Source: Elusimicrobiota bacterium (lineage in GTDB: Bacteria; Elusimicrobiota; Elusimicrobia; UBA1565; UBA9628). From it: a DNA stretch of 64,000 bases. The stretch lies in contig JBBTJN010000011.1 of assembly GCA_038059415.1 (NCBI GenBank), positions 7,150 to 71,149 of the forward strand. Reading direction: 5' to 3'. Below the pieces are notes generated by a model. It saw nothing but the letters and a program-made list of their open reading frames with translations, was not told where the DNA came from and did not search any database. The position numbers were made by a program, and so were the translations under genes. Positions 7,743 through 63,932 of the stretch are shown here, in pieces. The first letter of the stretch is position 1. Each line of letters starts with the position of its first letter.

Positions 7743-9473
7743 ATGTCGAACGACGAACACGGACACGGACACAACGAGCTGTCCTTTCAGGAGAAATATG
7801 TTTTCTCCGTCGACCACAAGGTCATCGGGCTTCAATATCTCATCACCTCGTTCATCTTTCTCCTCGTCGGCTTCGCGCTGATGGGGCTGATGCGCTGGCA
7901 GCTCGCGTTTCCCGGCACGCCGATCCCGTTTTTCGGACGGTTCTTCCCGGCCGACCTGGCTCCCAACGGCGTCATGAGCGGAGAGTTCTACAACGCGCTC
8001 GGCGCCATGCACGGCACGATCATGGTGTTCCTGGGGGTCGTACCCCTTGCGGTCGGCGCCTACGGCAATTACGTTTTGCCGCTGCAGATCGGCGCGCCCG
8101 ACATGGCGTTCCCGCGCATGAACATGATGTCGTATTGGCTCTATCTTCCGGGAGGCATCCTCATGCTGTCGTCATTCCTGATGCCCGGCGGCGCCGCGCA
8201 ATCCGGCTGGACCTCCTATCCGCCCCTGTCCATCATCAACCCCGGCCAGACGATGTGGCTCGTGTCGATGGTGGTGCTGATCACCTCGTCTTTGCTTGGC
8301 GCGATCAACTTTCTGGTCACAACGATCAATATGCGCGCGCCGGGCATGTGCCTGTGGCGCATGCCGGTGTTCTGCTGGGCCCAGTTCGTGACGGCGGTCC
8401 TGCTCCTGCTCGCCTTCCCTCCGCTCGAAGCCGCTTCAGTACTTCAGCTCATGGACCGCGTGTTCCACACCAGCTTTTACATGCCCAAGGACCTCGTCTT
8501 CCTCGGCAAGGCGTACGCGGGCTCGGGCGGCGGCCAGCCGCTGCTGTGGCAGCACCTGTTCTGGTTCTTAGCCCATCCCGAGGTCTATGTGCTCGTCCTG
8601 CCGCCCATGGGCATCGTCGCCGAGATCATCGCCAACAACACGCGCAAGCCCCTGCACGGCTACAAGACGATGGTGTTCTCGATGATCGCCATCGGCGTCA
8701 TGAGCTTCATGGTCTGGGCCCACCACATGTTCATCTCCGGGATGAGCGCATCGCTCAGCAACTTCTTCCTGGTCACGACGATGATCATCTCGGTCCCGTC
8801 GGTGGCCCTGATGACCTGCCTCGTGTTCAGCCTGAAGGGCGGCTCGATCCGCTTCAACGTGCCGATGCTGTTCGCTCTGGCGTTCATCCCGCTGTTCGCC
8901 ATCGGCGGACTGACCGGCCTGCCGTTGGGCCTGACGGTGACCGATATTTATCTGCACGACACCTACTACGTGATCGGACACTTCCACTTCGTGGTGGTCT
9001 CGGGCTCGATTATCGCGCTGATGGGCGGCACCTACTACTGGTTCCCGAAGTGGTACGGTCGCAAGATGAACGACACCTTGGGACGCATCCACTTCTGGGG
9101 CACGGTCGCCACCATGTGCGGCGTCTTCATGCCGATGTTGTTCATGGGCATGGCGGGCGCCTCGCGCCGCTTGTACGACCCGACGGCCCAACTCCACAAC
9201 CTCCCCGTCCAAGGCTGGAACGTGGTGAGCACGATCTCGGCCTACCTCCTGGCCGTGTTCCAACTTCCGTTCATTTACAACTTCTTCAACAGCATGTTCA
9301 ACGGCGAGAAGACGCCGGAAAACCCGTGGCAGGCCACGACGCTCGAGTGGGCGTGCCCGTCGCCTCCTCCGCACGGCAACTTCGAGATAACCCCCACGGT
9401 GTACCGCGGGCCGTACGAGTACTCCGTCCCCGGACGCGAGACGGACTTCTGGATGCAGACGGACAAGAACTAA
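7743..9473 (+). CDS. coxA: Cytochrome c oxidase subunit I
   Basis: 576-aa polytopic ORF with typical haem-copper oxidase subunit I sequence (GAPDMAFPRMN, WAHHMF, HDTYYVIGHFHF). Starts 3 nt after coxB. Confidence 0.95.
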   Translation: MSNDEHGHGHNELSFQEKYVFSVDHKVIGLQYLITSFIFLLVGFALMGLMRWQLAFPGTPIPFFGRFFPADLAPNGVMSGEFYNALGAMHGTIMVFLGVVPLAVGAYGNYVLPLQIGAPDMAFPRMNMMSYWLYLPGGILMLSSFLMPGGAAQSGWTSYPPLSIINPGQTMWLVSMVVLITSSLLGAINFLVTTINMRAPGMCLWRMPVFCWAQFVTAVLLLLAFPPLEAASVLQLMDRVFHTSFYMPKDLVFLGKAYAGSGGGQPLLWQHLFWFLAHPEVYVLVLPPMGIVAEIIANNTRKPLHGYKTMVFSMIAIGVMSFMVWAHHMFISGMSASLSNFFLVTTMIISVPSVALMTCLVFSLKGGSIRFNVPMLFALAFIPLFAIGGLTGLPLGLTVTDIYLHDTYYVIGHFHFVVVSGSIIALMGGTYYWFPKWYGRKMNDTLGRIHFWGTVATMCGVFMPMLFMGMAGASRRLYDPTAQLHNLPVQGWNVVSTISAYLLAVFQLPFIYNFFNSMFNGEKTPENPWQATTLEWACPSPPPHGNFEITPTVYRGPYEYSVPGRETDFWMQTDKN

Positions 9474-9476
9474 CCC

Positions 9477-10082
9477 ATGAGCCAACCCTATAGCTGCGCC
9501 GCAATTCCAGACGACTCCGACACGCACAGCGGCGTCAGCAACGCCAAGCTCGGCGTGTGGCTGTTCCTCGCATCCGAGATCATGCTGTTCGCGACCTTGT
9601 TTACAAGCTACATCGTCCTGCGCATGGCCTCACCCTCCTGGCCGTGGGGCTGGGATGTGCTCAACGTCCCGCTGGCGACATTGAACACGGTGATCCTGAT
9701 CACGTCGTCGGTCACCATCGTGATGGCGTACGTGAAGGCCTACGACAAGAACAAGGCCGGCTTCCAGATGTGGATGGCGGCGACCTTGCTGCTCTCGCTC
9801 GGGTTCCTCGTGGTCAAGGGATTCGAATACGGGCATGAGTTCGCGCTTGGCATCGGGCCGCATACGAGCGTGTTCTATGCGATCTACTTCACGATGACGG
9901 GTCTTCACGGCCTGCATATCCTGGGCGGCATCGCGGTCAACGGCGGGCTGCTGTACATGAGCGGCGTCGAGGCGCACTGGGAAAATCCGTTATTCCTCGG
10001 CCGCGTCGAGGGCGCCGGGCTGTACTGGCACTTCGTCGACATCGTCTGGATATTCCTGTTCCCGGCGCTGTACCTACTCTAG
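9477..10082 (+). CDS. coxC: Cytochrome c oxidase subunit III
   Basis: 201 aa. Contains LGVWLFLASEIMLFATLF and YWHFVDIVWIFLFP, typical of subunit III. Operon position supports the call. Confidence 0.9.
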   Translation: MSQPYSCAAIPDDSDTHSGVSNAKLGVWLFLASEIMLFATLFTSYIVLRMASPSWPWGWDVLNVPLATLNTVILITSSVTIVMAYVKAYDKNKAGFQMWMAATLLLSLGFLVVKGFEYGHEFALGIGPHTSVFYAIYFTMTGLHGLHILGGIAVNGGLLYMSGVEAHWENPLFLGRVEGAGLYWHFVDIVWIFLFPALYLL

Positions 10083-10907: not shown

Positions 10908-11788
10908 ACACCACTCCCGCAAGGCCGGTGCGATTAAATCTCCGTCCCCCCTCCGGAGATCCTCTGTTCACTTCCTGGGCCAAGGCCACGGTCTGCGCCG
11001 CCTTCTTTCTCCTGTTCGCCGGAGGAATGGTGACCTCGACGGGTTCGGGACTCTCGGTTCCAGACTGGCCCCTCTCCTTCGGCGGGATCAACCCTCCCAT
11101 GATCGGAGGGATCTTCTTCGAGCACGGACATCGTCTGTTCGCGGGCGGCACGGCGCTCATGACCTGGGCGCTCCTGATCCTCTCGTGGCGTCCCGGCGTG
11201 CCCTCCGGCGCGCGTACGGCGACCATGCTTGCCTCGGGCGGCATTTTGCTTCAGGCCCTGCTCGGCGGCCTGACCGTGCTGATGAAGCTACCCCCCCTCG
11301 TTTCAATCTCCCACGCCTGCCTCGGCCAGGGCGTGTTCTGTCTGCTGTTGGCCTGCGTGGTCCTCTCCGTTCCGAGGACCGTCTTCGGGCCCGGGTATTC
11401 CCGCGTGTTCCGCTTCGCGGCGCTGGGATTTTTCGCCGCCTATCTTCAGCTGGCGCTCGGCGCGCTCGCGAGACACACCGGCCAGGGCCTGGGCTGGCAC
11501 ATCCTGTGGGCCTGCGCCGTCATCGTTCTGGCGGCCCTGGCCTGTTTCACGGCTTTACGTTGCGACGCCGACGTCCTCAAACGTCCGGCTTTGCTGCTCG
11601 CAGTCGCGGTACCGGTGCAGCTCTGCTTGGGTTTGTTCGCGCTTCTTGTGCGGGTGGACTCGACGATGGTCCTCGGCTTCAAAGAGGCCGCCGTATGGCG
11701 CACCGCGCACCTCTCGGGCGGGGCTCTCACCTTGGCCGCCTTTCTCCTGTTGGCGCTCAGTTCGCGCCGGACCGCGGAGCCCGCATGA
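10904..11788 (+). CDS. ctaA: Haem A synthase (COX15/CtaA family)
   Basis: 294-aa polytopic ORF with GGMVTSTGSGLSVPDWPLSFG and EHGHR motifs typical of CtaA. Lies between the oxidase subunits and ctaB. Confidence 0.8.
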   Translation: MNTTPARPVRLNLRPPSGDPLFTSWAKATVCAAFFLLFAGGMVTSTGSGLSVPDWPLSFGGINPPMIGGIFFEHGHRLFAGGTALMTWALLILSWRPGVPSGARTATMLASGGILLQALLGGLTVLMKLPPLVSISHACLGQGVFCLLLACVVLSVPRTVFGPGYSRVFRFAALGFFAAYLQLALGALARHTGQGLGWHILWACAVIVLAALACFTALRCDADVLKRPALLLAVAVPVQLCLGLFALLVRVDSTMVLGFKEAAVWRTAHLSGGALTLAAFLLLALSSRRTAEPA

Positions 11789-41204: not shown

Positions 41205-42356
41205 TTATTGTAACAGGAATTGGCGGGAGCGGTCAAACGCCAGAGAGCTGCTCGCGGACACGACGGCCGCCGCCGAGGACGGCCGTCCCGTCGAGGACGC
41301 GGCGGCGCGCAAGTTCGACAGCGCCCCCGGGCCGCGCAACAGGGCGGCCGCTGTCCGCGCAGCGCGTTCCGGCGCTCCTGCTTCAATCGCGGCGCCGGCG
41401 GCTATTAGGCGCCTGGCGTTGACCTCCTCCTGGCCCGGTAAAGGATTGATTAATACCATGGGCAGTCCCGAAGCGAGGCTCTCGGCCGCGCTGAGCCCTC
41501 CAGGCTTGCCGATATGAATGTCGGCCGCCGCCATCATGGCCGCGACAAGTTCCGGCGGCTGCGGCCCAAACACGCGCAGACGCCCGCCCGCCTCGCGGCG
41601 AGAGCAGAGCGCGGCACGAAGCCGGTCGTTGGCGCCGCACAGGATCAGCAGGTGTGCGCGCGGGCTTACGGCCAGGAGGGCGGCGGCCGCGCGATCGATG
41701 CCGCCAAGTCCCTTTCCCCCACCCGACAGAAGAGCGACCGGCGCGGCGGACGGCAGGGCGAGCGCTCGGCGGGCCTCCTCCCGGGAAGGTCGCGATTGGA
41801 ACGCAGGGTGAATTGGAATCCCGGTCGACTGAAGGCGCTCGCGCGGGACGCCGAGAGCGGCCAAAGCGTCCACGGCCGTATCGTCCGGAGCCAAAATGAG
41901 ATCCGCCGGCGGATCGGCCCAGAACGGGTGCACGCCGTAGTCGGTCAGGACTGAAACAACCGGGATGTCGAGCTCGCCTCGTCGTCGAGCCTCCGAGAGA
42001 ACAGCCGCAACCGTAGCCTGAGGGCAGACCACGACCTGGGCTCCCGAGCGGCGCATGCCCTCGCGCAGGCGCCGGGTGCCGCCAAGGTCAAGGTAAACGG
42101 CGCGCACCGCGCGCAGGACGCAGCGCGCCCAGGCGCCCCGGTACAACGCTCCATAGAAACCGGGCGCGGCACGCAAAAGCCCATGATAGCCCCGCGCCGC
42201 CGCTAGGCCGGCGGCCGGATGATAATCCGCGGCGATTTCCACCCGGGAAAAAAAGAGGCCGGCCTTTCGGCCGGCCTCCTCGATGGCGAACGCCGCCGCG
42301 GAGTGCCCGCTCGGCGCGTAACCGTAGACGAGCAGCGCCCGCGAGACTTCGCCCAA
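41205..42356 (-). CDS. GT28 glycosyltransferase, MGDG-synthase/UgtP-like
   Basis: LLVYGYAPSGHSAAAFAIEEA, LLSGGGKGLGGI and GKPGGLSAAESLASGLPMVLINPLPGQEEVNA are typical of diacylglycerol glycosyltransferases. The start is uncertain. I chose the TTG at 42356, just after the cytochrome c stop. Confidence 0.7.
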   Translation of the reverse strand: MGEVSRALLVYGYAPSGHSAAAFAIEEAGRKAGLFFSRVEIAADYHPAAGLAAARGYHGLLRAAPGFYGALYRGAWARCVLRAVRAVYLDLGGTRRLREGMRRSGAQVVVCPQATVAAVLSEARRRGELDIPVVSVLTDYGVHPFWADPPADLILAPDDTAVDALAALGVPRERLQSTGIPIHPAFQSRPSREEARRALALPSAAPVALLSGGGKGLGGIDRAAAALLAVSPRAHLLILCGANDRLRAALCSRREAGGRLRVFGPQPPELVAAMMAAADIHIGKPGGLSAAESLASGLPMVLINPLPGQEEVNARRLIAAGAAIEAGAPERAARTAAALLRGPGALSNLRAAASSTGRPSSAAAVVSASSSLAFDRSRQFLLQ

Positions 42357-42360
42357 TTGC

Positions 42361-42957
42361 TTAAAGGTCCTTCGCTTCCTGAAGCTCGGCGAAGCGCTTC
42401 GGGTCCTTTGTCTTGAGCTGCTCAACAAGACCTTTGCGATGCACGGCCCAGGCTGCCGCGTTGGCGCCGGTTTTGCGTTTGACCGAGTCGTACGAGAGGA
42501 ATTCGTAGATGGCCTTGCCGTCGGCCTTCTGCAGATTGCAGCCGGGCTTGTTCATCATCCGTTTGACATAGCGGCTCCAGACCTTGGTTTCGATCTGCCA
42601 GACGGACCCGTCCTTGAACAGCTCAGGCTGGTCTATCTTAAGTTTGGCGACCCAAGCGTTCTGCTTCGCTTCGTCCAACCCGCCTTCGGGTTCGACGAAG
42701 CGGCTGTTGAGAGGGCGAGCGGCCGAATGGCACTGCGCGCAGCCGCCCTTGGCGCCGATAAGCTTCGCGTAGCCCGTCTGAACGTTGGCCGGGTAGGTCT
42801 TGAGGAGGTCCGCGGGAAGCGTGTCCGGCCCGAAGTCGTTCGGGTACGGGTTCGTCATCGCTTTTTCCTTCTCGCTCATCTCGACCGCACGCACGGGCGA
42901 CGCATAGGCGCCACCCATCAAGGTTGCCGCGAGTATCAAAGTCAGTTTGCGATTCAT
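42361..42957 (-). CDS. Monohaem c-type cytochrome (exported)
   Basis: Signal peptide MNRKLTLILAATLMGGAYASPVRA and a single CAQCH motif. Follows the pentahaem gene. Confidence 0.75.
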   Translation of the reverse strand: MNRKLTLILAATLMGGAYASPVRAVEMSEKEKAMTNPYPNDFGPDTLPADLLKTYPANVQTGYAKLIGAKGGCAQCHSAARPLNSRFVEPEGGLDEAKQNAWVAKLKIDQPELFKDGSVWQIETKVWSRYVKRMMNKPGCNLQKADGKAIYEFLSYDSVKRKTGANAAAWAVHRKGLVEQLKTKDPKRFAELQEAKDL

Positions 42958-52567: not shown

Positions 52568-53062
52568 ATGAACCGACGAGGATCGAAGACCGCCGCGTTC
52601 GCCGTTATCGTCGGGGTCGCCTTCGGCGGCCTGTTCGCCGTTCGTCACCTGAACAAGACGCGCGCCCGTCACGAGAGTGAGTGCCGCGCCCTGACCAAGG
52701 CCCTCGATAAGACCGTCCGCGCGCGCTCCCCCCGCTTCTTGGAGAGCATCGTCGAGCACCGCTATGATCGAACAGAAGGCCGCTGCCTCGCCGCGCTCGA
52801 GTACCATTACAAGCCTTGCGACGCCAAACTGCTCAAGAGGACTCCGTTGCTCTGCACCGGCCCCGACGCCGACGTCGCGATATACTCCTTCCACAACGCC
52901 GGCGCCAACCCGCTGTTCATCTGCGAGCGGTTCTACGCGACGGGCAAGGCCCGGTGCACCGAGTCGATGTACGGCGCCGACGGCAGACTCCTGTCCACCC
53001 GGGAATTCCCCCCCGATCGGTTCCCCGCCATTAAATCCGAACTCATCAACCCCAAGCCTTAA
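52568..53062 (+). CDS. Hypothetical N-terminally anchored Cys-rich protein
   Basis: 164-aa ORF with one TM helix (AAFAVIVGVAFGGLFAV) and six Cys in the soluble part. No recognisable family. Confidence 0.45.
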   Translation: MNRRGSKTAAFAVIVGVAFGGLFAVRHLNKTRARHESECRALTKALDKTVRARSPRFLESIVEHRYDRTEGRCLAALEYHYKPCDAKLLKRTPLLCTGPDADVAIYSFHNAGANPLFICERFYATGKARCTESMYGADGRLLSTREFPPDRFPAIKSELINPKP

Positions 53063-53136: not shown

Positions 53137-54102
53137 ATGGATCAGAAAAATACGCTGGATTTTCACGGTTCCGGCCTTTGGGCGGTCATCCTCGGCGGCT
53201 CGTCGGGATTCGGTCTAGCGACGGCAAAAAGGCTGGCACGCGCCGGTTTCAACATCCTCATCGGGCACAAGGACAAGGAAGGCACAGTCGAGACGGTGAT
53301 CAAGCCCCATTTCGACGAAATTCGAGCTTCGGGCGTCAACCTCATAACCCACAACATCAATTTGTTCGATGAGGACGCAAGAGGCGAACTCTTCGAAAGC
53401 ATCCAGACCAACTGCGGGCCCGGCAAGGTTCATCTATTCATGCAGTCCATCGCAGCCGGTTCCTGCCGTCTGATGATCGACGACAAGACTCCCGATTTCC
53501 GCGGCAAGGCGATCAAGGGCCTGGCCGAGGCGCTGGGTCTGCCTCCCGAGAAGGTCAAGGCAGCCGTCAACGCCGCGTTCCACGACAAGGGCTGCGACGC
53601 ATTGCACACGCTTGCCGATTCGCGAATTCCGTACCGCGAGGAGCTGCTGACCCAGGAAGATTTCGAGAAAACCATCTTCATGATGGGCTACGATTATTTG
53701 CTGTGGGGCCGCGAGCTGTGCAAGGAAGGCCTCCTCACCAAGGACGCCCGTTTGGTGGCCATGACGTCCGAAGGCAACGAGGTCGCGTGGAAGGGCTATG
53801 CCGCCGTTTCTGCCGCGAAGACCGCGCTGGAAGCCTCATGCCGCGCGATGGCCGTCGAGCTCGCGCCTTACGGCGTGTCCTCGTACATCATGCAGGCCGG
53901 CATCACCGACACGCCCGCCGGCAACGCGATCCCGAACTTCGACCTGATGAAGGCCCAGGCCCGCATCCGCAACCCGTTCCATCGGCTGACGACGCCCGAG
54001 GATATCGCCGAGGCCATCCTCGGCATCTGCGGACCCGCCTTGCGGTGGGTCAACGGTTCCATAATCCGCGCCGACGGCGGGGAAGCGATATCAGGCCTGT
54101 GA
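53137..54102 (+). CDS. Enoyl-[acyl-carrier-protein] reductase-like SDR (FabI/FabL-type Y-x6-K)
   Basis: Rossmann motif VILGGSSGFGLATAKRLA and WKGYAAVSAAKTALEA (Tyr-x6-Lys, as in FabI). An insertion is present around residues 100-170. Confidence 0.65.
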   Translation: MDQKNTLDFHGSGLWAVILGGSSGFGLATAKRLARAGFNILIGHKDKEGTVETVIKPHFDEIRASGVNLITHNINLFDEDARGELFESIQTNCGPGKVHLFMQSIAAGSCRLMIDDKTPDFRGKAIKGLAEALGLPPEKVKAAVNAAFHDKGCDALHTLADSRIPYREELLTQEDFEKTIFMMGYDYLLWGRELCKEGLLTKDARLVAMTSEGNEVAWKGYAAVSAAKTALEASCRAMAVELAPYGVSSYIMQAGITDTPAGNAIPNFDLMKAQARIRNPFHRLTTPEDIAEAILGICGPALRWVNGSIIRADGGEAISGL

Positions 54103-54151: not shown

Positions 54152-55162
54152 ATGAGCAACCCCTTCAACATCTTGGGAATGGGCTGGGCCCTTCCGAAAA
54201 ACGAAATCGACAACGACTTCCTGCACAAGGAAGTGGGCCTGAAGAAGACACCCGAATGGTGCCTCTCGCGCCTCGGCATCCTGAAGCGCTACTCGGTTCT
54301 ATCAAGGAAATACATCGCCAAGACGCACAACAAGGACCCTCTGCAGGCGATCATCCACGCCCGCGCCAACGGCGAGACGCCGGTATCCTTGGCGGTGCGC
54401 GCGGCGCAACGGGCGATGGCCCATTGCGGCGTAAAGCCCGCGAGGATCGGCATGGTCGTCTGCAACTGCGACCTGCCCTTCGATCTCGTGCCCGGCACCG
54501 CGAACTACATCGCCAAGGCGCTCGGCATCGGCTCCGGGCCGCACATGGACCTCAACACCGCGTGCTCCTCGTTTGCTCGTCATATGCTGTACCTGGGAGA
54601 TCTGAGCGACCGCGCGTTCCCCGAGTTCGTACTGACCGTGCAGACCGCCTGCTACACGACGCGCACCGACTACTCCCCCGAAAACTTCGACGGCTACATC
54701 TGGGGCGACGGCGCGTCAGCCCAGATATGCTCGCTTAAGCATAAGGGCCGCATCAAGGTGGAGCCTCTGGTGTTCGCGACCGACCCCCAGGGCTGCGACG
54801 ACGTGAAGGTGGACGCCACGAGGCACTTCTGGCAGGACGGCGCGAAGATCCGCGAGTTCTCGATAAGACGGACCGTCGAAATGTTCGAGCAGATCGCCGC
54901 GGCGAAGAAACTCTTCGCGGAGGATGTCTACACCGTCACTCACCAAGCGAATTTCGTGATGCAGGAAAGCATCCTCGGTCATCTGAATCTGCCGAAGGAA
55001 CGCCATATCAGCAATGTGCAAGTCCAAGGCAACATCGCCTCGGCCGGCATGCCCTCGGCCATCGCCCAGCATTTGGATAAATTGAAGAAGGGCGACCAAA
55101 TCGTGTACGCCGTCCTCGGCGCAGGTCTCGCGTGGGGCGGCGGCCATATGGAGGTGCAGTAA
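54152..55162 (+). CDS. 3-oxoacyl-ACP synthase III (KAS III / FabH-like)
   Basis: Cys/His/Asn triad contexts NTACSSFARH, VTHQANFVM and QGNIASAGMP. Confidence 0.85.
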   Translation: MSNPFNILGMGWALPKNEIDNDFLHKEVGLKKTPEWCLSRLGILKRYSVLSRKYIAKTHNKDPLQAIIHARANGETPVSLAVRAAQRAMAHCGVKPARIGMVVCNCDLPFDLVPGTANYIAKALGIGSGPHMDLNTACSSFARHMLYLGDLSDRAFPEFVLTVQTACYTTRTDYSPENFDGYIWGDGASAQICSLKHKGRIKVEPLVFATDPQGCDDVKVDATRHFWQDGAKIREFSIRRTVEMFEQIAAAKKLFAEDVYTVTHQANFVMQESILGHLNLPKERHISNVQVQGNIASAGMPSAIAQHLDKLKKGDQIVYAVLGAGLAWGGGHMEVQ

Positions 55163-55887
55163 TGCCCGATATCGCGGTCGTGACCGGCGCCTCGGGCGGC
55201 ATCGGCGCCGCGACGGCGATAATGATCCACGCAAGATCCGAAGGATGCCTCCAGGTCTGCCTACACTGCAATGGGAACAAGGCCGCGGCTCAGGCGCTTT
55301 CCAAGGATATCCCGAATTCGTTTGTCGTGCAGGCCGATCTGTCCGCGGCCGAAGGTCGTAAAGCTCTCTTGGACGCCGTGCTTTCCGCGGGAACCCCTTA
55401 TTGTTTGGTCAACAACGCCGGCATCGACCGTCCCCACGAGCCCGCATTGATGGTGACAGAAGAGGCGTACGACAAGATTATGGACACAAATCTGAGGGCG
55501 CCATTATTTCTTATGCGCGACTTCGCCAAAGAGATGGCGCGCAACGAGGCGGGCGTGATCGTCAACGTCTCGTCAGTGTTGGCGCGCAAAGCCGTCGTCG
55601 GCTCGGCCATCTATCGCGCCTCCAAGGCTGCGGTCGAGGCATTAACCCGGCAGTTCGCCTCGGAATTGGGTCCGAAAGGAGTGCGCGTCGTCGCGATCGC
55701 CCCCGGCTTCATCGAGACGAGCATGACCGCCGCCATCCCCGAGGATCAGCGCGCCGGCATCAAAAAAGACGTCGCTCTCGGCGCGTTCGGCGCGCCCGAA
55801 GCCATCGCCGAGACCGTCTGGCACGCGATCGAGAACCAATATCTGACGGGCGCCGTCATCGCGGTGGATGGAGGCATGGCGTTGTGA
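55162..55887 (+). CDS. 3-oxoacyl-ACP reductase (FabG-like SDR)
   Basis: The ATG at 55162 shares a nt with the upstream TAA (TAATG). Contains VVTGASGGIGAATA, NNAG and SAIYRASKAAVEAL (YxxxK). Confidence 0.85.
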   Translation: MPDIAVVTGASGGIGAATAIMIHARSEGCLQVCLHCNGNKAAAQALSKDIPNSFVVQADLSAAEGRKALLDAVLSAGTPYCLVNNAGIDRPHEPALMVTEEAYDKIMDTNLRAPLFLMRDFAKEMARNEAGVIVNVSSVLARKAVVGSAIYRASKAAVEALTRQFASELGPKGVRVVAIAPGFIETSMTAAIPEDQRAGIKKDVALGAFGAPEAIAETVWHAIENQYLTGAVIAVDGGMAL

Positions 55888-56375
55888 GCGATCTCACCGC
55901 CGCCGAGGTGCTCAAGCTGGTACCCCAACGTCCGCCGATGCGCTTCATCGATCAGATTGTCGAGATCGACAAGGAGCACGTGCTCACCAAGTACACCTGG
56001 AAGGACGCGGACTGCGCGGGGCATTTCCCGGGCAACCCCGTCGTGCCCGGCGTGAAGATGGTGGAGATGGCGGTCCAGACATCGGTCGTCGCCTGGGCGA
56101 TCTATCTCATGAGCGCCAGGGCCCGCGAAGAGCGCTTGTCGAGCATGGTCAACCTCTTCACCCACCTCGACCGGGGCTCCTTCAAGAAGATGGTGCGCCC
56201 CGGCGACACTCTCGCCTGCCGCGCGGCGTTCGGCAAGGACGGATTTTTCCGCGACGGGAAGCTCGTGGCCGAGGCCGAGATCAATTTCCTCGGCGGACCC
56301 AAAGACGGCGAGGCCGCGTTTACCGGCGTCGTGTCCGGACTCTGGATGTCGAAGGACTCGGAGAAACTGAAATGA
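55884..56375 (+). CDS. 3-hydroxyacyl-ACP dehydratase (FabZ/FabA-like hotdog fold)
   Basis: The GTG at 55884 overlaps the FabG-like stop (GTGA). LVPQRPPMRFIDQIVE...HFPGNPVVPGVKMVE is the FabZ-type active-site motif. Confidence 0.8.
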   Translation: MSDLTAAEVLKLVPQRPPMRFIDQIVEIDKEHVLTKYTWKDADCAGHFPGNPVVPGVKMVEMAVQTSVVAWAIYLMSARAREERLSSMVNLFTHLDRGSFKKMVRPGDTLACRAAFGKDGFFRDGKLVAEAEINFLGGPKDGEAAFTGVVSGLWMSKDSEKLK

Positions 56376-57691
56376 GCACCCGCTACCCGAAGCGCGTCGT
56401 CATCACCGGCATCGGCGCCGTGGCCCCGAACGGCCTCGGCATCGCAAACTACCACGCCGCCTTGCTGGCCGGCAGGTCCGGCATCTCCCACCATGAAGAT
56501 CTCGCGACGCTCAACTTCGCCTGCCAGATCGGCGGCAAGCCCCCCGTCGGCCCGGATGAAGCCGAGGCCCTGCTCTCCGGTCCCGACCTAGCCAAGCTCA
56601 ACGAGGCGATGGTGTACGCGACGATGGCCGCCGTCGAGTGCGCGCGGATGTCCGGCGTAAACGTCGACTTAAAGAAGGGCTATAGCGACACTCCCGTGGA
56701 TTGGACGACGGGCGCGATCATCGGCTGCGGCATCGGCGGTATGGACACGATGTGCGAGGACATGGGGCCGGTGCTCGCGGCGGCGAGCGCGCAGGAACCG
56801 GGCATGGGCGTGCGCCCCATGGGAACGGATATCGTCCCCAAGATCATGGAGAGCTCGGTGTCGGTCGCCGTCGGAAAATTCCTGGGCTTGGGCGGGCAAA
56901 CGACGACGAACTCGTCGGCCTGCAACACGGGAACGGAAGCTATTTTCGAGGCCTTCAAACATATTCAGCTCGGCTTCTGCGATTCGATGTATGCCGGCGG
57001 AGCCGAAGGCACCCACCCCGGCACCTGGTCGGGCTTCGACGCGATGCGTGACGTGCTCTGCTCCAGGTTCAACGACCGCCCTGAGAAGGGCTCCCAACCG
57101 ATGGGCGCGGGCGCCTGCGGTTTCGTCCCGTCCGGCGGCGCGGGCGTATTGCGCCTGGAAACGTTGGAGTCGGCGCGCAAACGCGGCGCCAAGATTTTGT
57201 GCGAAGTCGTCGCGACCTACGTTAACTCCGGCGGCCAACGCGACGGCGGCACGATGACCTTCCCCAACCCGGACGGGGTCATGCGCTGCATAAGACAAGT
57301 CATCAAGGATGGAGATTTGGATCCCCGCCGGATTTCTTTAATCAACGGCCATTTGACGTCGACGGGCGCGGATCCGAAGGAAGTGGGCAGCTGGATCAAG
57401 GCTCTGGAACTGCCGCTGGAGAAGTTTCCTCTCATCCAGTCCACGAAATCCATGATCGGGCATGCGCTCGGCGCGGCGGGCGCTTTAGAATGCGTCGCCG
57501 TCGTCGACCAGATCGTCAACAGTTACGTGCATCCCTCGATCAACAGCGAGGACGTTCACCCCCAGATTCCCATCGGCGACAGCATCCCGCATCAGATGGT
57601 GAGAAAAGAGCTCGAGTACGTCATCAAAGCCAGTTTCGGCTTTGGCGACGTAAACGGATGCGTCCTCTTCAAACGCTGGGACGGAAAATAA
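56372..57691 (+). CDS. 3-oxoacyl-ACP synthase I/II type (Cys-His-His)
   Basis: ATG at 56372 (ATGA overlap). Contains RVVITGIGAVAPNG, NSSACNTGTEAI, NGHLTSTGADPKE and STKSMIGHALGAAGALE. Confidence 0.85.
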   Translation: MSTRYPKRVVITGIGAVAPNGLGIANYHAALLAGRSGISHHEDLATLNFACQIGGKPPVGPDEAEALLSGPDLAKLNEAMVYATMAAVECARMSGVNVDLKKGYSDTPVDWTTGAIIGCGIGGMDTMCEDMGPVLAAASAQEPGMGVRPMGTDIVPKIMESSVSVAVGKFLGLGGQTTTNSSACNTGTEAIFEAFKHIQLGFCDSMYAGGAEGTHPGTWSGFDAMRDVLCSRFNDRPEKGSQPMGAGACGFVPSGGAGVLRLETLESARKRGAKILCEVVATYVNSGGQRDGGTMTFPNPDGVMRCIRQVIKDGDLDPRRISLINGHLTSTGADPKEVGSWIKALELPLEKFPLIQSTKSMIGHALGAAGALECVAVVDQIVNSYVHPSINSEDVHPQIPIGDSIPHQMVRKELEYVIKASFGFGDVNGCVLFKRWDGK

Positions 57692-57725
57692 TAGAATCGC
57701 AGTTATCCTCGGAGGAACGAAGAAA

Positions 57726-58628
57726 ATGGCATTCATGCGAAAACAGTCGGTTGTCGAGGCGGTCGACGTGAGTACTCTCACCGCGGAAGAGGCCGAGAAG
57801 CGCATCACGGCGGGCGTCAAGAAATACGCCACCAACGAGGCCAACTACGCCGTGGCCGACGCGAATACACCCTACCTCGGGCACATCGTGGGCATGGGCA
57901 TCGAGTCCTCGAACCTCGCCGACATCACGATGTCCATTGAGCGCCAGTTCCTCACCAAGATGACCACAAAGGTTCCCCTGTCCGAAGGCTCCTCCGAATA
58001 CAAGTTCAAGGCGGGAGAACTCGGCAAGCTTCGCATCCTGGACGGCCAGGACGCTTTAGCCGCCACGCCGGGACTGTCGGTCAAGATGCTCATGGACCTC
58101 GGCCATCTACCGAGGAACGACGCCTATCTCGAGAAGGTCATGTCGTTTGCCTACGTGATGGCGACGGGCGACGGCTGGAAGATGGCCGACGCGCTCAAGA
58201 AGATGGCGGGCAAGGCCGATAAGTTGGCCGGTGCCGAACGAGGAGAAGCCATCGTCAACATGAAGACCCTCGTAGCACAGGCCAAGGACTACGATCTCCT
58301 TCTCGCCGACGCGGCCAAGCTCGCGGCCTCCAAGGCGAAGGCCTACGCCAACGACAAGGGCGGTTTCGACGCGCTGACCAGCGAGTTGAACCTGACCCTC
58401 GACAAGATCAAGGGCGTTTCCTCCGACGGCGATGCCGCGGCGCTCGCCAAGCTGCGCGGCGAGGAAGCCGAAATTCGCACGCGTCTCAAGATGAGCGCGG
58501 CCAAGCTTCGCGTCTCGCAGGAAGTCTCCGAGGCCGCCGGCAAGCGCCGCTCAATCGAGGGCAAGAAGGTCGACGAGGTTCGCGCCGCCCTTCAGGAAGC
58601 CGTTACGCTCGCCGAGAAGCTCTCCTAA
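57726..58628 (+). CDS. Hypothetical 300-aa protein: ACP-like N-terminal segment plus a long Ala/Lys-rich helical tail
   Basis: Residues 54-75, IVGMGIESSNLADITMSIERQF, align position-for-position with the ACP helix II region [20 protein letters not shown]. Ser61 falls at the phosphopantetheine site. Residues ~150-300 are A/K/E/L-rich and predicted helical. Confidence 0.5.
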   Translation: MAFMRKQSVVEAVDVSTLTAEEAEKRITAGVKKYATNEANYAVADANTPYLGHIVGMGIESSNLADITMSIERQFLTKMTTKVPLSEGSSEYKFKAGELGKLRILDGQDALAATPGLSVKMLMDLGHLPRNDAYLEKVMSFAYVMATGDGWKMADALKKMAGKADKLAGAERGEAIVNMKTLVAQAKDYDLLLADAAKLAASKAKAYANDKGGFDALTSELNLTLDKIKGVSSDGDAAALAKLRGEEAEIRTRLKMSAAKLRVSQEVSEAAGKRRSIEGKKVDEVRAALQEAVTLAEKLS

Positions 58629-58630
58629 CG

Positions 58631-60040
58631 ATGCCGCTGGATGCGGAGGAAGTCAAAGCCCTCCGCTTCCAGTGGCGCTTGAGCCGCGCGCTCGTGGTGC
58701 TCGTGTCGCTTGTGGTCACCGCGATCGCGCGGTTTCATTTCCAGTACCGCCTCGACGAGGACATCGACGAGTTGCGCGCGGACATATGGACCAAGCTCGA
58801 CGCGCACGACGGCCCCGTCATCTGGGCCGCCAACCACCTGACGCTCATCGACAGCTTCCTCGTCTATTGGGCGATCTTCCCCGTCAGCCGCCTCCTCGAT
58901 GAGCGGCGCATCCCTTGGTCCACGCCCGAGTACACGAATTACTACAGGCTCGGCGGGCCGGTGCAAAGCGCCCTCATCCGCGGCCTGCTCTATCTGTGCC
59001 GCTGCATCCCGTTCCTTCGGGGCGGGGAAGACGCGGCGTCTGAAATGTGGCGACGGAAGGCCTTCGACAAGTGCGTATGGGTTCTCAAAGAGGGCGGCGC
59101 CGTGTTCGTTTATCCGGAAGCCGGACGCTCGCGCTCGGGCTGGCTCGAGCCTCGGCGCCCGAAGGACTTCCTCGGCAAGTTGGCCATCGAGGTCCCTGCC
59201 TCGAAATTCCTTTGCGTGTATCTGCGTTCCGACCGCCAGATCTCGACGACCGCCTGCCCGCCGCGTGGCGACCGTCTACGCGTCGTGGCCGATCTTATCT
59301 CGGGCGTGCTCCCCGGCGAGACGAATCCCCGCGACATCAGCCAGCGCCTGTTCAACCGGCTCGCCGAGATGCAGCAGGAGTGGTGGAAGGGCTCCGAAAT
59401 GGCGCGCAACTGTGCTGGCAACGACATCGTAGACCTCAAGACGCCGCTGCTGCGCGAGAATTTCTCCGACGACCTGACCGAGGCCGATCAGGAGTGGCTC
59501 GAACGTCACCTGACAAAGAAGGAACTCGCCTATCTCCCCGAACAAGGGCCGACCAATCTCTTCCGCTGCTTCTGGCGCTTCTTCTGCGCGAAGGAAGCCT
59601 GCCACAAGGCGCTGGGCCGCGCCGTGATCGTGGTCCCCAACGGCGCGTTTCACGAGATCGAAATAGACCTTTTCCGCCGCAGGGCGACGCACATCCCGAG
59701 CGGCCTCCAACTCGACATCCGCTTCACCGACGACGACGAGGAGAAGCTCCATTGCGTCGCGGTCCTGCGCGGCGGCTACATCGGCGACGAGGAGACTGCG
59801 GGTGATATCCTCTGGACCGTGGGCGAGGTCCCGGCGGGAACCTCTGCCGGCGCCTTCGTCCGGGACTTAGCGCTCGACATGATCGCCTCGTCCAACGACG
59901 AGATCGCCACCGCCTCGCGCCTGGCCCTCACCGAAAATTCCGGCCTTCCCGGCGTGCTGTGGCGCGGTGCTCTCCAAGACTGGAGCCTGTCTCTGTCCCA
60001 CTCCGGCCGATTCGCGGCCGCCAGCTTCATGATCTCGTGA
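58631..60040 (+). CDS. Fusion protein: PlsC/LPLAT-type acyltransferase plus 4'-phosphopantetheinyl transferase
   Basis: The N-terminal half has AANHLTLID (NHx4D) and VYPEAGRSRSG (motif III). The C-terminal half has GNDIVDL, FCAKEACHKALG and SLSHSGRFAAA, typical of AcpS/Sfp-type PPTases. Confidence 0.7.
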   Translation: MPLDAEEVKALRFQWRLSRALVVLVSLVVTAIARFHFQYRLDEDIDELRADIWTKLDAHDGPVIWAANHLTLIDSFLVYWAIFPVSRLLDERRIPWSTPEYTNYYRLGGPVQSALIRGLLYLCRCIPFLRGGEDAASEMWRRKAFDKCVWVLKEGGAVFVYPEAGRSRSGWLEPRRPKDFLGKLAIEVPASKFLCVYLRSDRQISTTACPPRGDRLRVVADLISGVLPGETNPRDISQRLFNRLAEMQQEWWKGSEMARNCAGNDIVDLKTPLLRENFSDDLTEADQEWLERHLTKKELAYLPEQGPTNLFRCFWRFFCAKEACHKALGRAVIVVPNGAFHEIEIDLFRRRATHIPSGLQLDIRFTDDDEEKLHCVAVLRGGYIGDEETAGDILWTVGEVPAGTSAGAFVRDLALDMIASSNDEIATASRLALTENSGLPGVLWRGALQDWSLSLSHSGRFAAASFMIS

Positions 60041-60050
60041 GGAGAATCGC

Positions 60051-60983
60051 ATGAGCGATGCCATTTGCGCGCTGTTCGCCGGCCAGTCGGTTCAGGAGAC
60101 GGGCATGGGCGTCGAGTTGCTGAGAAACCCCGCCGCCCGCGCCGTCATCGATAGGCTGAAGCCCTCGCTCGGCGCCGATCTCGAGACTTTGCTGACGACG
60201 ATGCCCGATGAGTCCTTGGCGCTCACCTTCAACGCCCAACGCGCGATCCATGCCTCGCATGTCGCGCACTGGTTCGCCTACAAGTCGGCTCATCCCGGCA
60301 TCAAGCTCTCCGGCGCCGTCGGTCACTCGATGGGCGTGGTCGCCGCCCTGGTCGCCGCCGAAGCTCTGCTCCTCGAGGACTCCGGCCGCTTCATTGCCGC
60401 GCGCGCGAAGGCGTTCTCCGACTGCTGCAAGGCCTTCACCGAGCCGATGGGACTGGCCGCCGTCTCGGCGGACGATTTCAACGACGTCGTCCAATCCGCG
60501 GACGAGGTGCCCGGCGTCTGCGTCGCGTTGTGGAACACGCGCGGTCGCGGCACGCTCGGCGGGACGCTCGCCGCGCTCGAGGCCTACGCGGCCAAAGCCC
60601 GGGCCGAGGACTGGCCCGTGAAAATCAAGATTCTCAAGGTTGAGGGACCCTATCACACCGCGGCCTTCGCTCCCGCCAAAGACGCCCTCGCCGCAACGCT
60701 CGCGGCCCTCGAGGTGAAGGCGCCCAAGGTCCCCGTGTTTATGGGAACCTCGGGAAAGGCCGAGAACGACCCGGCGAGGATCAAGGCGCTGCTCGGCGAG
60801 CAGACCGTCGCCTGCGAGCGGCACCTCGACGCGGTGCGAGCGGCGCACGCGGCCGGCTGCCGTACCTTCGTCGAGGCGTCCTTCAAGCCCCAGCCTGTGA
60901 CCTGGCTGCCCGACCAGCTAGAGGCGGGTTCCTACAAGGCCATCGCGCTCACCACGGCGGAAATCACCGCGTCGACGAGATAG
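60051..60983 (+). CDS. Malonyl-CoA:ACP transacylase-like acyltransferase (FabD family)
   Basis: Contains FAGQSVQETGMG, GHSMGVVAAL (GHSxG nucleophile elbow) and YHTAAF. Confidence 0.8.
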   Translation: MSDAICALFAGQSVQETGMGVELLRNPAARAVIDRLKPSLGADLETLLTTMPDESLALTFNAQRAIHASHVAHWFAYKSAHPGIKLSGAVGHSMGVVAALVAAEALLLEDSGRFIAARAKAFSDCCKAFTEPMGLAAVSADDFNDVVQSADEVPGVCVALWNTRGRGTLGGTLAALEAYAAKARAEDWPVKIKILKVEGPYHTAAFAPAKDALAATLAALEVKAPKVPVFMGTSGKAENDPARIKALLGEQTVACERHLDAVRAAHAAGCRTFVEASFKPQPVTWLPDQLEAGSYKAIALTTAEITASTR

Positions 60984-61024: not shown

Positions 61025-62365
61025 ATGCCCACCCGGCGCTACCCCGAGACCGGTGTTTTCTACCGCGCGCTCGATCGAGAGTTCCCCATGATCGTACGCG
61101 GCGAGGGTTGTTGGCTTGTCGACGACAAGGGCCGGCGTTACCTGGACGCCTGCGGCGGAGCCTACGTCGCGAACCTGGGGCACGGCGTTTGCGAGATCGC
61201 TGACGCGGTCGCCGAGCAAGTCCGCAAGGTCGCCTATGTCAATGGGACGGCCTTTACCAACGAGCCCGCCGAGGAACTGGCCGCAGAGTTGCGCACGCTC
61301 AACCCCCAAGGCCTCGACTTCGCCTACTTCCTTTCTTCCGGCTCGGAGGCCGTCGAGGCCGCGCTCAAGCTCGCCCGCCAGCACTGGATCGAGTCGGGAA
61401 AGCCCGGCAAGCACAAGATCATCGCGCGCGCGCCCGGCTATCACGGCAACACCTTGCTGGCGCTCTCCGCGTCAGCACGCGAAGAGTACAAGAAAATGTT
61501 CGCTCACTGGCTCGTGCCCGTGACCATGATTCCCGCTCCATACCCCTACCGTTGCATGCCGGACTCTCCCGCGATGACGGCCTCGGCCCTGGAGGACGCC
61601 ATCCTCAAAGAGGGTCCGGACTCGGTCGCCGCCTTCATCGCCGAGCCGGTCGGCGGCTCCTCGACCGGCGCGTCGGCGCCGCCGAAGGACTACTTCAAGC
61701 GGGTGAGAGATATCTGCGACAAGCATAGCGTGCTGTTTGTCGCAGACGAGGTCTTGTCCGGTTCCGGCCGCACCGGCAAATGGACGGCTCTCGAACACTT
61801 CGACGCGGCCCCGGACATCATGACGCTCGGCAAAGGTTTGTCGGGGGGTTATGTGCCGCTGTCCGCCGTCCTCGCGACAAGAAAAGTGATCGACCCGATC
61901 GCCAATGGATCGGGAACATTCAAACACGCCCAGACTTTTTCCCACTCGCCCGCCATTTGCGCCGCAGGGTTGGCCGCCGTCCGTCATATCAAGAGAAACA
62001 ACCTCGTCGACCGCTGCTCCAAGATGGGCGCCGCGCTTCAGCGCAAAATCTCCGTTTTGCTCGACCTTCCGTCCGTCGGCGACGTCCGCGGCCTCGGTCT
62101 TTTGGCGGGGATAGAGTTCGTCGCCGACAAAAAGACGAAGGCGCCGTTTCCCCGCGCGCTTAAATTCGCCGAGACCTTCGTCGCCTCGGCCCATAACGCC
62201 GGGCTCCTCGTCTGGCCCAACACCGGGCACGCCGACGGCGAGAACGGCGACCTCGTCGTGCTCGCCCCCCCATTCATCGTGACCGAGGCGGAGATCGACG
62301 AGATCGTCGTCCGCTTCAAGACCGCGCTCGAACGCACACTGGAGAAACTTCATGTCCACCGCTAA
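61025..62365 (+). CDS. Class III PLP-dependent aminotransferase
   Basis: Contains SGSEAVEAALKLAR, FIAEPVGGS, FVADEVLSGSGRTGKW and TLGKGLSGGYVPLSAV (PLP Lys). Confidence 0.85.
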   Translation: MPTRRYPETGVFYRALDREFPMIVRGEGCWLVDDKGRRYLDACGGAYVANLGHGVCEIADAVAEQVRKVAYVNGTAFTNEPAEELAAELRTLNPQGLDFAYFLSSGSEAVEAALKLARQHWIESGKPGKHKIIARAPGYHGNTLLALSASAREEYKKMFAHWLVPVTMIPAPYPYRCMPDSPAMTASALEDAILKEGPDSVAAFIAEPVGGSSTGASAPPKDYFKRVRDICDKHSVLFVADEVLSGSGRTGKWTALEHFDAAPDIMTLGKGLSGGYVPLSAVLATRKVIDPIANGSGTFKHAQTFSHSPAICAAGLAAVRHIKRNNLVDRCSKMGAALQRKISVLLDLPSVGDVRGLGLLAGIEFVADKKTKAPFPRALKFAETFVASAHNAGLLVWPNTGHADGENGDLVVLAPPFIVTEAEIDEIVVRFKTALERTLEKLHVHR

Positions 62366-63932
62366 CGCCGCTCCCGCCGCGAAGATCACCTACACCTCCG
62401 TGAACACGGACATGACCGCGTTCCACCGTTCTTTCGACGAGGCCCTGACGCTCGTGCGCGGCAAGGCCGGAAAGGAGCACCCGCTCTGGATCGACGGCAA
62501 GGCCGTGAAGTCGGCTTCCCCCCTTCTCGTCGACCTCTCGCCCATCGATACATCCTTCGTCCTCGGAAAGTTCGCGGCCTCGACCGCCGACCATGTGGAC
62601 CAGGCCGTCAAAGCCGCCCATCGCGAGCAGAAGCTCTGGCGCGCTCTCACGTGGCAGGAGCGCGTGAAGACGATGCGCAAGGCCGCCGTCGCCATACGCG
62701 AACGCAAGTTCGAGATCGCCGCCGTGATGAGCCTGGAAGTGGGCAAGAGCCGCCTGGAGGCCATGGGCGACGCCGAGGAGTCGGCCGACCTCATCGAATA
62801 TTACGCCAAGAACGTCGAGGACAATAACGGCTACATCGTGCCGCTGGGCAAGCTCCTGCCCAACGAAAACACGCGCTCGGTGCTGCGCCCCTTCGGGGTG
62901 TTTGTTTGCATCGCGCCCTTCAACTTCCCCATGGCGCTCTCGACCGGGATGTCCGCAGCGGCCCTGCTCGCCGGCAACGGCGTCGTCTACAAGCCCGCCC
63001 AGGACGCGCCCTGGACCGGCCTCATGCTCTACGAGTGCTACATGGCCGCGGGCATCCCGGCCGGGCTGTTCAATTTCGTGACGGGCCTGGGCTCGGTGAT
63101 CGGAGACGCGCTGTGGAAGAACCCGGGCGTCGACGGCATCGTGTTCACCGGCTCCAAGGAAATCGGAATGCGCATGGTCAAAGAGTTCTCCTCGGCCTAC
63201 CCCAAGCCCGCGCTCATGGAGCTGGGCGGCAAGAACCCGACCTACGTTTCCGAAACCGCCAACCTCGACGACGCCGCCTCGGGCGTCATGAAGTCCGCCT
63301 TCGGTCTGCAGGGACAGAAGTGTTCCGCCTGCTCGCGCGTGTACGTCCACGAGGAGATCTATGACGCCTTCGTGGCCAAGCTCGTCGAAAAGAGCAAGGC
63401 CATCGTCAGCGGCGACCCCACGCAGAAGGACGTATACTTCGGGCCGGTCATCAACGCCAAGTCGGCCAAGACCTTCGATCAAGCCATCGAGTCCGCGAAG
63501 AAGGGCGGCAAGGTTTTGCTCGGCGGAGAGCGCCTCAAGGGAGGGCTCTTCGACAAGGGGCACTTCTGCGCCGCGACCATCGTGGAGCTTCCTCTCGACC
63601 ATGAAATCTTCATGCGAGAACTGTTCGTGCCTATTCTCGCGGTGGGAAAGGTCAAGGACATGGATCAGGCCATCACGCAATCCAACCGTGCGGAGTACGG
63701 CCTGACCGCGGGAATCTTTACAGCCAGTCAAGAAGAGATACAGCGGTATTTCGATGAGATCGAGTCCGGCGTCTGCTACGCCAACCGCCCCTCGGGCGCG
63801 ACCACCGGCGCGTGGCCCGGCGTGCAGTCCTTCTGCGGCTGGAAGGGCTCCGGCTCGACTGGCAAGGGAGGCTGCGGGCCCTATTACGTCACGCAGTTCA
63901 TGCGCGAACAATCGCGCACCATCATGGAATGA
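62352..63932 (+). CDS. Aldehyde dehydrogenase, L-glutamate gamma-semialdehyde (P5C) dehydrogenase-like
   Basis: Contains MELGGKNP, FGLQGQKCSACSR (catalytic Cys) and EYGLTAGIFT. At 526 aa the length matches RocA/PruA-type enzymes. Confidence 0.8.
   Translation: MSTANAAPAAKITYTSVNTDMTAFHRSFDEALTLVRGKAGKEHPLWIDGKAVKSASPLLVDLSPIDTSFVLGKFAASTADHVDQAVKAAHREQKLWRALTWQERVKTMRKAAVAIRERKFEIAAVMSLEVGKSRLEAMGDAEESADLIEYYAKNVEDNNGYIVPLGKLLPNENTRSVLRPFGVFVCIAPFNFPMALSTGMSAAALLAGNGVVYKPAQDAPWTGLMLYECYMAAGIPAGLFNFVTGLGSVIGDALWKNPGVDGIVFTGSKEIGMRMVKEFSSAYPKPALMELGGKNPTYVSETANLDDAASGVMKSAFGLQGQKCSACSRVYVHEEIYDAFVAKLVEKSKAIVSGDPTQKDVYFGPVINAKSAKTFDQAIESAKKGGKVLLGGERLKGGLFDKGHFCAATIVELPLDHEIFMRELFVPILAVGKVKDMDQAITQSNRAEYGLTAGIFTASQEEIQRYFDEIESGVCYANRPSGATTGAWPGVQSFCGWKGSGSTGKGGCGPYYVTQFMREQSRTIME

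Follow-up and report, generated by a model that had tools for sequence, protein, structure and literature searches.

Few bacterial proteins are as conserved and abundant as the acyl carrier protein AcpP, on which the synthesis of fatty acids, phospholipids, lipid A, lipoate and biotin converges. Clusters of fab genes commonly carry acpP, and in canonical acyl carrier proteins (ACPs) helix II is the partner-recognition helix, with the AcpP positions D35, E41 and E47 contacting partner enzymes. The mitochondrial ACP sits on an LYRM helical bundle, which receives the acyl-phosphopantetheine arm; the ACP of fungal type I fatty-acid synthase (FAS) consists of a four-helix carrier core and a four-helix structural subdomain, and mycobacterial AcpM has a C-terminal extension. 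In anammox bacteria, an unusual type II fatty-acid synthesis (FAS-II) cluster, the ladderane lipid cluster, contains amxACP, which PMC10139942 calls an acyl carrier protein. Here we describe X, a 300-residue protein encoded within a FAS-II operon on a 64,000-nucleotide stretch of Elusimicrobiota DNA (assembly GCA_038059415.1, contig JBBTJN010000011.1, positions 7,150 to 71,149; hereafter the window). X is probably a highly divergent, phosphopantetheinylated ACP fused to a five-helix domain, a reading to which we give a probability of roughly 0.68. It most likely holds the operon slot that is normally taken by an ACP and is missed by standard annotation. The carrier reading is supported by predicted fold, by invariance of a serine and by genomic context, not by membership in a sequence-profile family.

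X resembles AcpP (PF00550) in several respects. Its predicted core superposes on solved ACPs with template modelling (TM) scores of 0.70-0.77 per target, and in the models a serine stands at the N-terminus of helix II in X too. Residues E60, D66 and E72 of X lie at positions equivalent to D35, E41 and E47 of AcpP, and the last core helix is preceded by a T-P-G turn in place of the T-V-G/Q of ACPs. The X gene is also part of a fab operon, in which it stands between the genes for a 3-ketoacyl-ACP synthase (KAS) and for an AcpS-type phosphopantetheinyl transferase (PPTase). X differs from AcpP in that its sequence matches neither PF00550 nor any solved ACP significantly, in its ES(S/A) rather than DSL motif, in the 27-residue beta-hairpin inserted after helix II, in the isoelectric point (pI) of its N-terminal domain (~5.5 vs 4.0), and in its length of 300 residues, including a fused 160-residue five-helix domain, compared with ~78 residues.

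The N-terminal domain of X and its invariant serine

The X open reading frame (ORF; 57726-58628, +) is preceded by a Shine-Dalgarno sequence, GGAGGA, at 57711-57716 (+), which lies 9 nt 5' of the ATG as read from the sequence. Since M1-A2-F3 is kept among the homologues, the start codon is fixed. An initial annotation made from the window's sequence had placed the ORF between a KAS I/II gene and an acyltransferase-PPTase gene. The ORF proved to be real, with the KAS I/II gene on its 5' side and a gene for a fusion of PlsC acyltransferase and AcpS PPTase on its 3' side. The identical protein in NCBI, AAB268_01210, is annotated as 'hypothetical protein'.

AlphaFold2 (AF2) modelled full-length X with confidence from a 49-sequence alignment (predicted local distance difference test score (pLDDT) 92.3, predicted TM-score (pTM) 0.86). 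A separate AF2 model of residues 1-140 gave a pLDDT of 79.7 and a pTM of 0.70. This N-terminal domain (57726-58145, +), delimited from the AF2 models, Foldseek and conservation, rose in pLDDT from ~80 when modelled alone to >90 in the full-length context. It contained helices at residues 20-34, 61-74, 115-124 and 132-139; in the full-length model the first was split into 20-30 and 38-42 and the last spanned 132-135. DSSP assigned two hairpin strands in both models, residues 75-84 and 92-101. When the 1-140 model was compared by Foldseek with 350,542 PDB chains, 17 of the 18 top matches were acyl or peptidyl carrier proteins. The best structural matches were to mitochondrial ACP (NDUFAB1; 9n50_C, 9i4i_X and 7v2c_G, from OXSM, complex I and mitoribosome entries), and the others included E. 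coli AcpP (9mlw_C), V. harveyi ACP (2l0q), DltC (7r49_E) and H. pylori ACP (4zjb_G). The TM-scores per target given above apply to the ACPs and were lower for DltC and 4zjb_G; the best root mean square deviation was 2.4 A, the best probability was 0.99, and the E-values ranged from 0.08 to 3. With E-values of at least 0.08, the fold call rests on the TM-scores and on the uniformity of the match list.

In both models helix 61-74 begins with Ser61, and this helix is probably the equivalent of ACP helix II. The core of the N-terminal domain has only three long helices, so the superposition of a whole ACP requires that helix 61-74 correspond to helix II, and the assignment is corroborated by the sub-threshold sequence alignments described below, all of which share a serine-on-serine register. 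Residues from about 9 to 140 most likely form an ACP-type helical core with a beta-hairpin (residues 75-101; 57948-58028, +) inserted after helix II, between the helix II and the helix III/IV equivalents. The initial annotation had proposed to look for a four-helix carrier fold in residues 1-95 in which Ser61 opens helix II. The predicted structure of residues 1-140 agrees with the ACP-like N-terminus and with the place of Ser61, but the proposed boundary has to be moved, as the conserved domain extends to ~140 and includes the hairpin.

Ser61, the proposed 4'-phosphopantetheine site, is encoded by TCC at 57906-57908 (+), as had been annotated, within the motif G-M-G-I-E-S-(S/A)-N. It was invariant in 217 of 217 informative unique homologues, including a 22%-identical member, a count that leaves out one fragment truncated at residue 62. 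Around it the motif was G-I-E-S-(S/A)-N, with D-I-P-S-A-D instead in the homologue P0141. Columns invariant in all members included S61, F75, I104, T114, G116, G126 and F141. The lowest entropy in X was found in block 61-70 (0.17 bits), followed by blocks 101-110, 71-80, 51-60 and 111-120, and mean family identity was 0.79 in the N-terminal domain vs 0.66 in the C-terminal domain. In helix II, E60, D66 and E72 were each at least 90% conserved, and R73 was also present. The distant members P0129, P0131, P0141 and P0125 have a short hairpin or none.

About 250 homologues of X were obtained at 90% clustering, 22-100% identical and nearly all ~300 residues long, and those with an organism name came nearly all from metagenome-assembled genomes (MAGs) of Elusimicrobia. 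The most distant full-length members, down to 22% identity, were P0124, P0126, P0127, P0129, P0131 and P0141. An exhaustive profile search of 1.84 billion representative proteins found only 30 representatives of the X family and no carrier protein among the matches, indicating that the family is small and orphan. A literature search found no description of the X family or of ACP loss in Elusimicrobia. Two homologues from JGI records, P0107 and P0108, are named 'muconolactone delta-isomerase'; no support for this name was found, and it looks like an annotation error.

Conservation of the cluster and the adjacent PlsC-AcpS fusion

Gene content around X was compared at 73 loci, comprising 70 GTDB representative species genomes and three further loci. 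X occurred in 70 GTDB species, nearly all of them Elusimicrobiota, together with a few MAGs labelled Acidobacteriota, Planctomycetota or 'bacterium'. The order enoyl reductase-FabH-FabG-dehydratase-KAS-X-PlsC/PPTase was intact in most loci, and FabD either adjoined it or lay a few kb off. X was usually found 3' of the KAS gene. In every locus with conserved order and contig sequence 3' of X, the next gene was the PlsC-PPTase fusion, and the gene adjacent to X encoded an AcpS-type PPTase in the great majority of loci. Loci L071 and L075 carried genes on both strands around X, indicating that the association outlasts rearrangement. It also holds at great sequence distance: in locus L003, where X is 22% identical, X is followed by the PlsC-PPTase, FabD and an 1833-residue acetyl-CoA carboxylase fusion. 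The cluster lies in a core-genome neighbourhood of Pst/Pho, haem and cytochrome genes.

We searched these loci for a conventional carrier. An AcpP-type hidden Markov model (HMM) gave no match at E<1 across the loci and the window, 1.21 Mb in all; in a leave-one-out control the AcpP HMM detected even the ACP of the type II act polyketide synthase, at E=3e-7. No ACP was found in the 64-kb window by tblastn with four ACPs, and no Pfam PP-binding protein was recorded in loci L001-L003 or L075. A conventional ACP gene consistently beside orthologous clusters, which the initial annotation had named as the observation that would speak against its proposal, was found at none of the 73 loci.

The fusion gene (58631-60040, +) begins 2 nt past the stop codon of X and encodes a 469-residue protein. 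Pfam assigned Acyltransferase (31.5 bits; cutoff 23) and ACPS (PF01648; 36.2 bits; cutoff 25), corresponding to a PlsC acyltransferase at residues ~60-188 and an AcpS-type PPTase at residues ~263-469. The family has 156 members, many of them on the same contigs as X, and all those named by organism are from Elusimicrobia. Invariant in the family are the PlsC motifs NHxxxxD (68-74) and PEAGRSRSG (162-170) and the AcpS motifs G-N-D (263-265), K-E-A-x-x-K (321-326) and S-H (456-457), and E344 is at least 90% conserved. These residues cover the Mg/CoA-binding motifs of AcpS enzymes (GxD, (F/W)xxKEAxxK and the IEI Glu). The AcpS-type domain carries an insertion of ~70 residues relative to AcpS, and the family profile places FAAKEAxxKA in register with the solved AcpS structures 3qmn and 1f7l. 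Because the PlsC and AcpS motifs are invariant and the AcpS-type region is in register with these structures, both halves look catalytically competent from their sequences. An N-terminal hydrophobic segment suggests membrane anchoring. The joining of a carrier-activating enzyme to a carrier-unloading enzyme is unusual in itself.

Sequence similarity, the C-terminal domain and alternative readings

The initial annotation had aligned an X segment without gaps to E. coli AcpP. The register and the five matches (Gly, Ser, Met, Glu and Phe) were reproduced with the 20-mer GMGIESSNLADITMSIERQF, but their number was not significant. In the six frames of the window, 570 of 78,941 20-mers reached at least five identities to the AcpP segment, so that 5/20 identities alone are at chance level, and 33 of these 570 also had the Gly and Ser in place. 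Under BLOSUM62 the X segment scored 35 and was the single best 20-mer match to the AcpP segment in the whole window. When the AcpP HMM was run over 13,485 six-frame segments, four X homologues were among the top 6, each with Ser on Ser. The match of the hairpin-less P0141 spanned positions 4-74 of the HMM, with TPG at the start of ACP helix IV. Alignment of X with eight ACPs by hhalign placed GIES on GADS (P=0.019). The hairpin region also weakly matched ribosomal protein eS4 in a profile search (E=0.12), which was taken as noise.

Several observations weigh against X being a carrier. Full-length X matched no Pfam or NCBIfam family at E<=1, phmmer and profile hmmsearch of X against PDB sequences retrieved no ACP, and the comparison with PP-binding that the initial annotation had called for was negative, with no Pfam PP-binding match to 28 N-domain members even at E<=10. 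The hhalign probability against ACPs was only about 2%, and the Foldseek E-values of the ACP matches were 0.08 or worse. The residue before Ser61 is Glu (Pro in P0141), not Asp. The N-terminal domain is mildly acidic (pI 5.4-5.7, net charge ~-3, vs pI 4.05 and -15 for AcpP), possibly in step with the strong divergence of all its partner enzymes, and the model packs the carrier core and the helical domain into a single rigid body (pTM 0.86). A canonical acpP could also exist elsewhere in these genomes. By sequence alone, X is not recognisable as a PP-binding protein.

These points bear on the possibility that X is an ACP-derived pseudo-carrier or scaffold, retaining the ACP fold without being phosphopantetheinylated. 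It would organise the Fab enzymes and the PlsC-PPTase, perhaps at the membrane, and the chains would be carried by a canonical AcpP encoded elsewhere. The lack of strong acidity, the absence of a detectable PP-binding signature and the rigid packing on a large helical domain in the model, unlike a freely diffusing carrier, are all in keeping with such a role, and the search that found no acpP covered 1.21 Mb of loci. However, a scaffold has no obvious need for a serine that is invariant at the exact ACP position or for helix II being the most conserved part of the protein. The PPTase encoded next to X in the great majority of loci and the absence of a canonical ACP at all 73 loci also argue against a scaffold, which we consider unlikely.

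The operon position alone would also be compatible with a regulatory subunit, and helical bundles can bind acyl chains. X might thus act as a regulator or sensor of fatty-acid synthesis that binds acyl-CoA or acyl-ACP, or that controls the PlsC-PPTase. However, Pfam and NCBIfam revealed no DNA-binding or known ligand-binding domain in X, the fold matches were carriers and not regulators, and the invariant serine at a helix N-terminus would be left unexplained. A regulatory function is the least probable of the readings considered here.

The C-terminal 160 residues (141-300; 58146-58625, +) are modelled as a conserved, folded five-helix domain that forms one rigid body with the N-terminal domain. 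The AF2 helices span residues 141-166, 169-194, 196-232, 237-271 and 276-299, with block-mean pLDDT values mostly >90. Ala, Lys, Glu and Leu make up 52% of residues 141-300, compared with 26-41% of the neighbouring enzymes. The richness in these residues that the initial annotation had noted is therefore real, but it belongs to ~160 rather than ~220 residues.

The same annotation had likened this region to the amphipathic helices of phasins or apolipoproteins. If X were a helical protein of that type, binding lipid or membrane surfaces, its N-terminal resemblance to ACPs would be coincidental. The five long A/K/E/L-rich amphipathic helices are a likeness to these proteins, and apolipophorin III is a five-helix bundle of ~160 residues that resembles the C-terminal domain in size and helix count. 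The tail is also basic in the clade of the window (pI 9.2), and the X profile gave weak matches in the PDB to RAP (E=0.07), ApoE (E=9.9) and designed helical bundles. However, all these profile matches had E-values of at least 0.016, no phasin or apolipoprotein family in Pfam matched X, and full-length X retrieved only generic helical bundles among the top 50 Foldseek matches in the PDB (TM <=0.35). Its matches in the PDB and BFVD included AhlC, designed bundles, SMC arms and tape-measure proteins, and the full-length search was uninformative because long helices dominate it. Among the homologues the tail keeps its sequence but not its net charge, which ranges from +5.8 to -10 and speaks against electrostatic membrane binding as a conserved function. 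The tail is attached to a carrier-like domain and encoded within a FAS operon, not beside PHA or lipoprotein genes: the cluster and its flanks contain FAS-II, PlsC/PPTase and unrelated genes only, with no PHA synthase or storage-lipid gene. Surface binding would moreover leave unexplained the conservation of residues 51-80 and 101-120, the invariant serine, the carrier-only Foldseek list and the adjacent PPTase. We rejected the phasin/apolipoprotein assignment on the noise-level profile matches, the Foldseek TM-scores, the lack of a Pfam match and the variable tail charge, and we regard a surface-binding function for X as very unlikely. Of the carrier fused to a surface-binding tail that had been envisaged, the carrier is kept, in view of the fold, the invariant Ser61 and the genomic context, and the surface-binding tail is not.

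For the candidate carrier, we favour a C-terminal domain that serves as a structural, acyl-chain-shielding or partner-docking subdomain; this role, proposed by analogy, is the weakest part of our interpretation. Like the mitochondrial ACP on its LYRM protein, X would join an ACP-like core to a helical bundle, though the bundle of X is covalently fused, has five long helices and shows no detectable similarity to the LYR family. The fungal FAS ACP and AcpM are comparable in that a carrier core is extended by non-catalytic helical or C-terminal segments. They differ from X in keeping the PP-binding signature and the DSL motif, and X is free-standing in a type II system and has a larger extension. 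Neither was among the top 50 Foldseek matches of full-length X.

FAS-II enzymes of the cluster and the proposed pathway

The operon is tightly packed on the plus strand. It starts, as in most loci, with a 321-residue enoyl reductase-like short-chain dehydrogenase/reductase of FabL/FabV-like type (53137-54102, +), followed by a FabH-like KAS III (54152-55162, +) and a FabG-like 3-oxoacyl reductase (55132-55887, +; the true start is probably the ATG at 55162), all assigned by Pfam and NCBIfam. Next are a FabZ/FabA-type hotdog dehydratase with an inferred GTG start (55884-56375, +), which matched Pfam FabA and NCBIfam FabZ below the curated cutoffs, and a divergent FabF/FabB-like KAS I/II with N- and C-terminal ketoacyl-synt domains (56372-57691, +) directly 5' of X. 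After X and the PlsC/PPTase fusion comes a FabD-like malonyl transacylase (60051-60983, +; Pfam and NCBIfam), which adjoins the cluster or lies within a few kb of it in most loci.

The FAS-II enzyme set is thereby complete, but all six enzymes (enoyl reductase, FabH, FabG, dehydratase, KAS and FabD) scored at about a quarter to 60% of the NCBIfam equivalog cutoffs, for example 268 of 494 for fabF (TIGR03150), 113 of 261 for fabD (TIGR00128) and 64 of 155 for fabZ (TIGR01750). The KAS was as far from solved FabF structures as from solved FabB structures (about 150-190 bits), and homologues of the dehydratase carried ApeI-like and ApeP-like matches. As judged from these scores, the divergence spans the whole FAS-II pathway and is not confined to the carrier.

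Other features of the region were also considered. A possible hidden ACP within the enoyl reductase gene (53515-53676; FHDKGCDALHTLAD, AAFHDKGCDALHTLAD; tblastn E=2.9) was rejected as a chance match, since it has Ala at the Ser position and lies inside the Pfam trans-2-enoyl-CoA reductase catalytic region (residues 65-270). A 164-residue ORF directly upstream of the enoyl reductase gene (52568-53062, +) was rejected as a cluster member on the ground that it is kept in only 10 of the 73 loci; its product has an N-terminal hydrophobic segment and several cysteines, matches no family and is shared by close relatives only. The class III aminotransferase and aldehyde dehydrogenase genes after FabD (61025-63932, +) were likewise excluded, being adjacent in some genomes only. 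This run, also seen in locus L077 (3555-7162), continues into a second aminotransferase and two CoA-transferase subunits, and the genes after FabD look like a separate amine or amino-acid catabolic operon. A glycosyltransferase resembling monogalactosyldiacylglycerol (MGDG) synthase (PF06925 and Glycos_transf_1; 41205-42428, -) is encoded 11 kb upstream of the FAS operon and is possibly a glycolipid synthase that uses diacylglycerol made downstream of the FAS pathway.

Some loci showed variations in gene content. Locus L001 (2124-4137 and 4945-5529) carries a tandem pair of FabH-like genes, as well as a gene for a GNAT acetyltransferase inserted between FabG and the dehydratase. The 1833-residue protein of locus L003 (13652-19153, +) combines biotin carboxylase, biotin carboxyl carrier protein (biotin-lipoyl) and carboxyltransferase in a single chain. 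In the Planctomycetota-labelled locus L075, a 400-residue FabA-domain protein (8662-9864, -) joins the cluster, an unannotated 187-residue protein is encoded directly 3' of X (10926-11489, +), and the 469-residue acyltransferase gave only a faint Acyltransferase match, with no ACPS match recorded.

If X is a carrier, the AcpS-type domain of the adjacent, putatively membrane-anchored fusion protein would modify Ser61 of apo-X to give holo-X. FabD, FabH, KAS, FabG, the dehydratase and the enoyl reductase would load and extend the acyl chain on holo-X, and the PlsC-type domain of the same fusion would move the finished chain from acyl-X to a lyso-lipid acceptor.

It is conceivable, though doubtful, that canonical AcpP has been lost in this Elusimicrobiota clade and that X is the sole fatty-acid carrier, with the enzymes co-evolved with it and the C-terminal domain shielding the growing chain or passing it straight to the PlsC-PPTase. 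In that case, co-evolution of the FAS-II set, the AcpS domain and PlsC with X would explain why the Fab scores are far below the cutoffs. A lineage-wide replacement of housekeeping fatty-acid synthesis and a specialised second pathway have roughly even odds. The uniformly divergent enzymes, the wide and vertical-looking distribution, the core-genome neighbourhood and the adjacency of acetyl-CoA carboxylase in one lineage favour replacement, and the below-cutoff scores and the ApeI/ApeP-like dehydratase matches favour a specialised pathway. The anammox cluster is similar in that it too is lineage-specific and combines divergent FAS-II enzymes with an unusual carrier of its own (PMC10139942). 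According to the same paper amxACP is recognised as an ACP, whereas X has two domains and escapes sequence detection. The clusters also differ in gene content, including the PlsC-AcpS fusion in Elusimicrobia.

If X is indeed a carrier, the known range of carrier sequences and architectures would be extended by a protein that is unseen by Pfam and NCBIfam, four times larger than AcpP and not strongly acidic. The seeming lack of an ACP in the FAS operon of an entire uncultured clade would be explained, and about 250 'hypothetical protein' annotations would be corrected. Carrier, PPTase and acyltransferase would also be naturally coupled in this cluster, both physically and genetically. If X is moreover the sole carrier and its C-terminal domain handles the chain, X may constitute, by analogy, a built-in equivalent of the mitochondrial ACP-LYRM arrangement.

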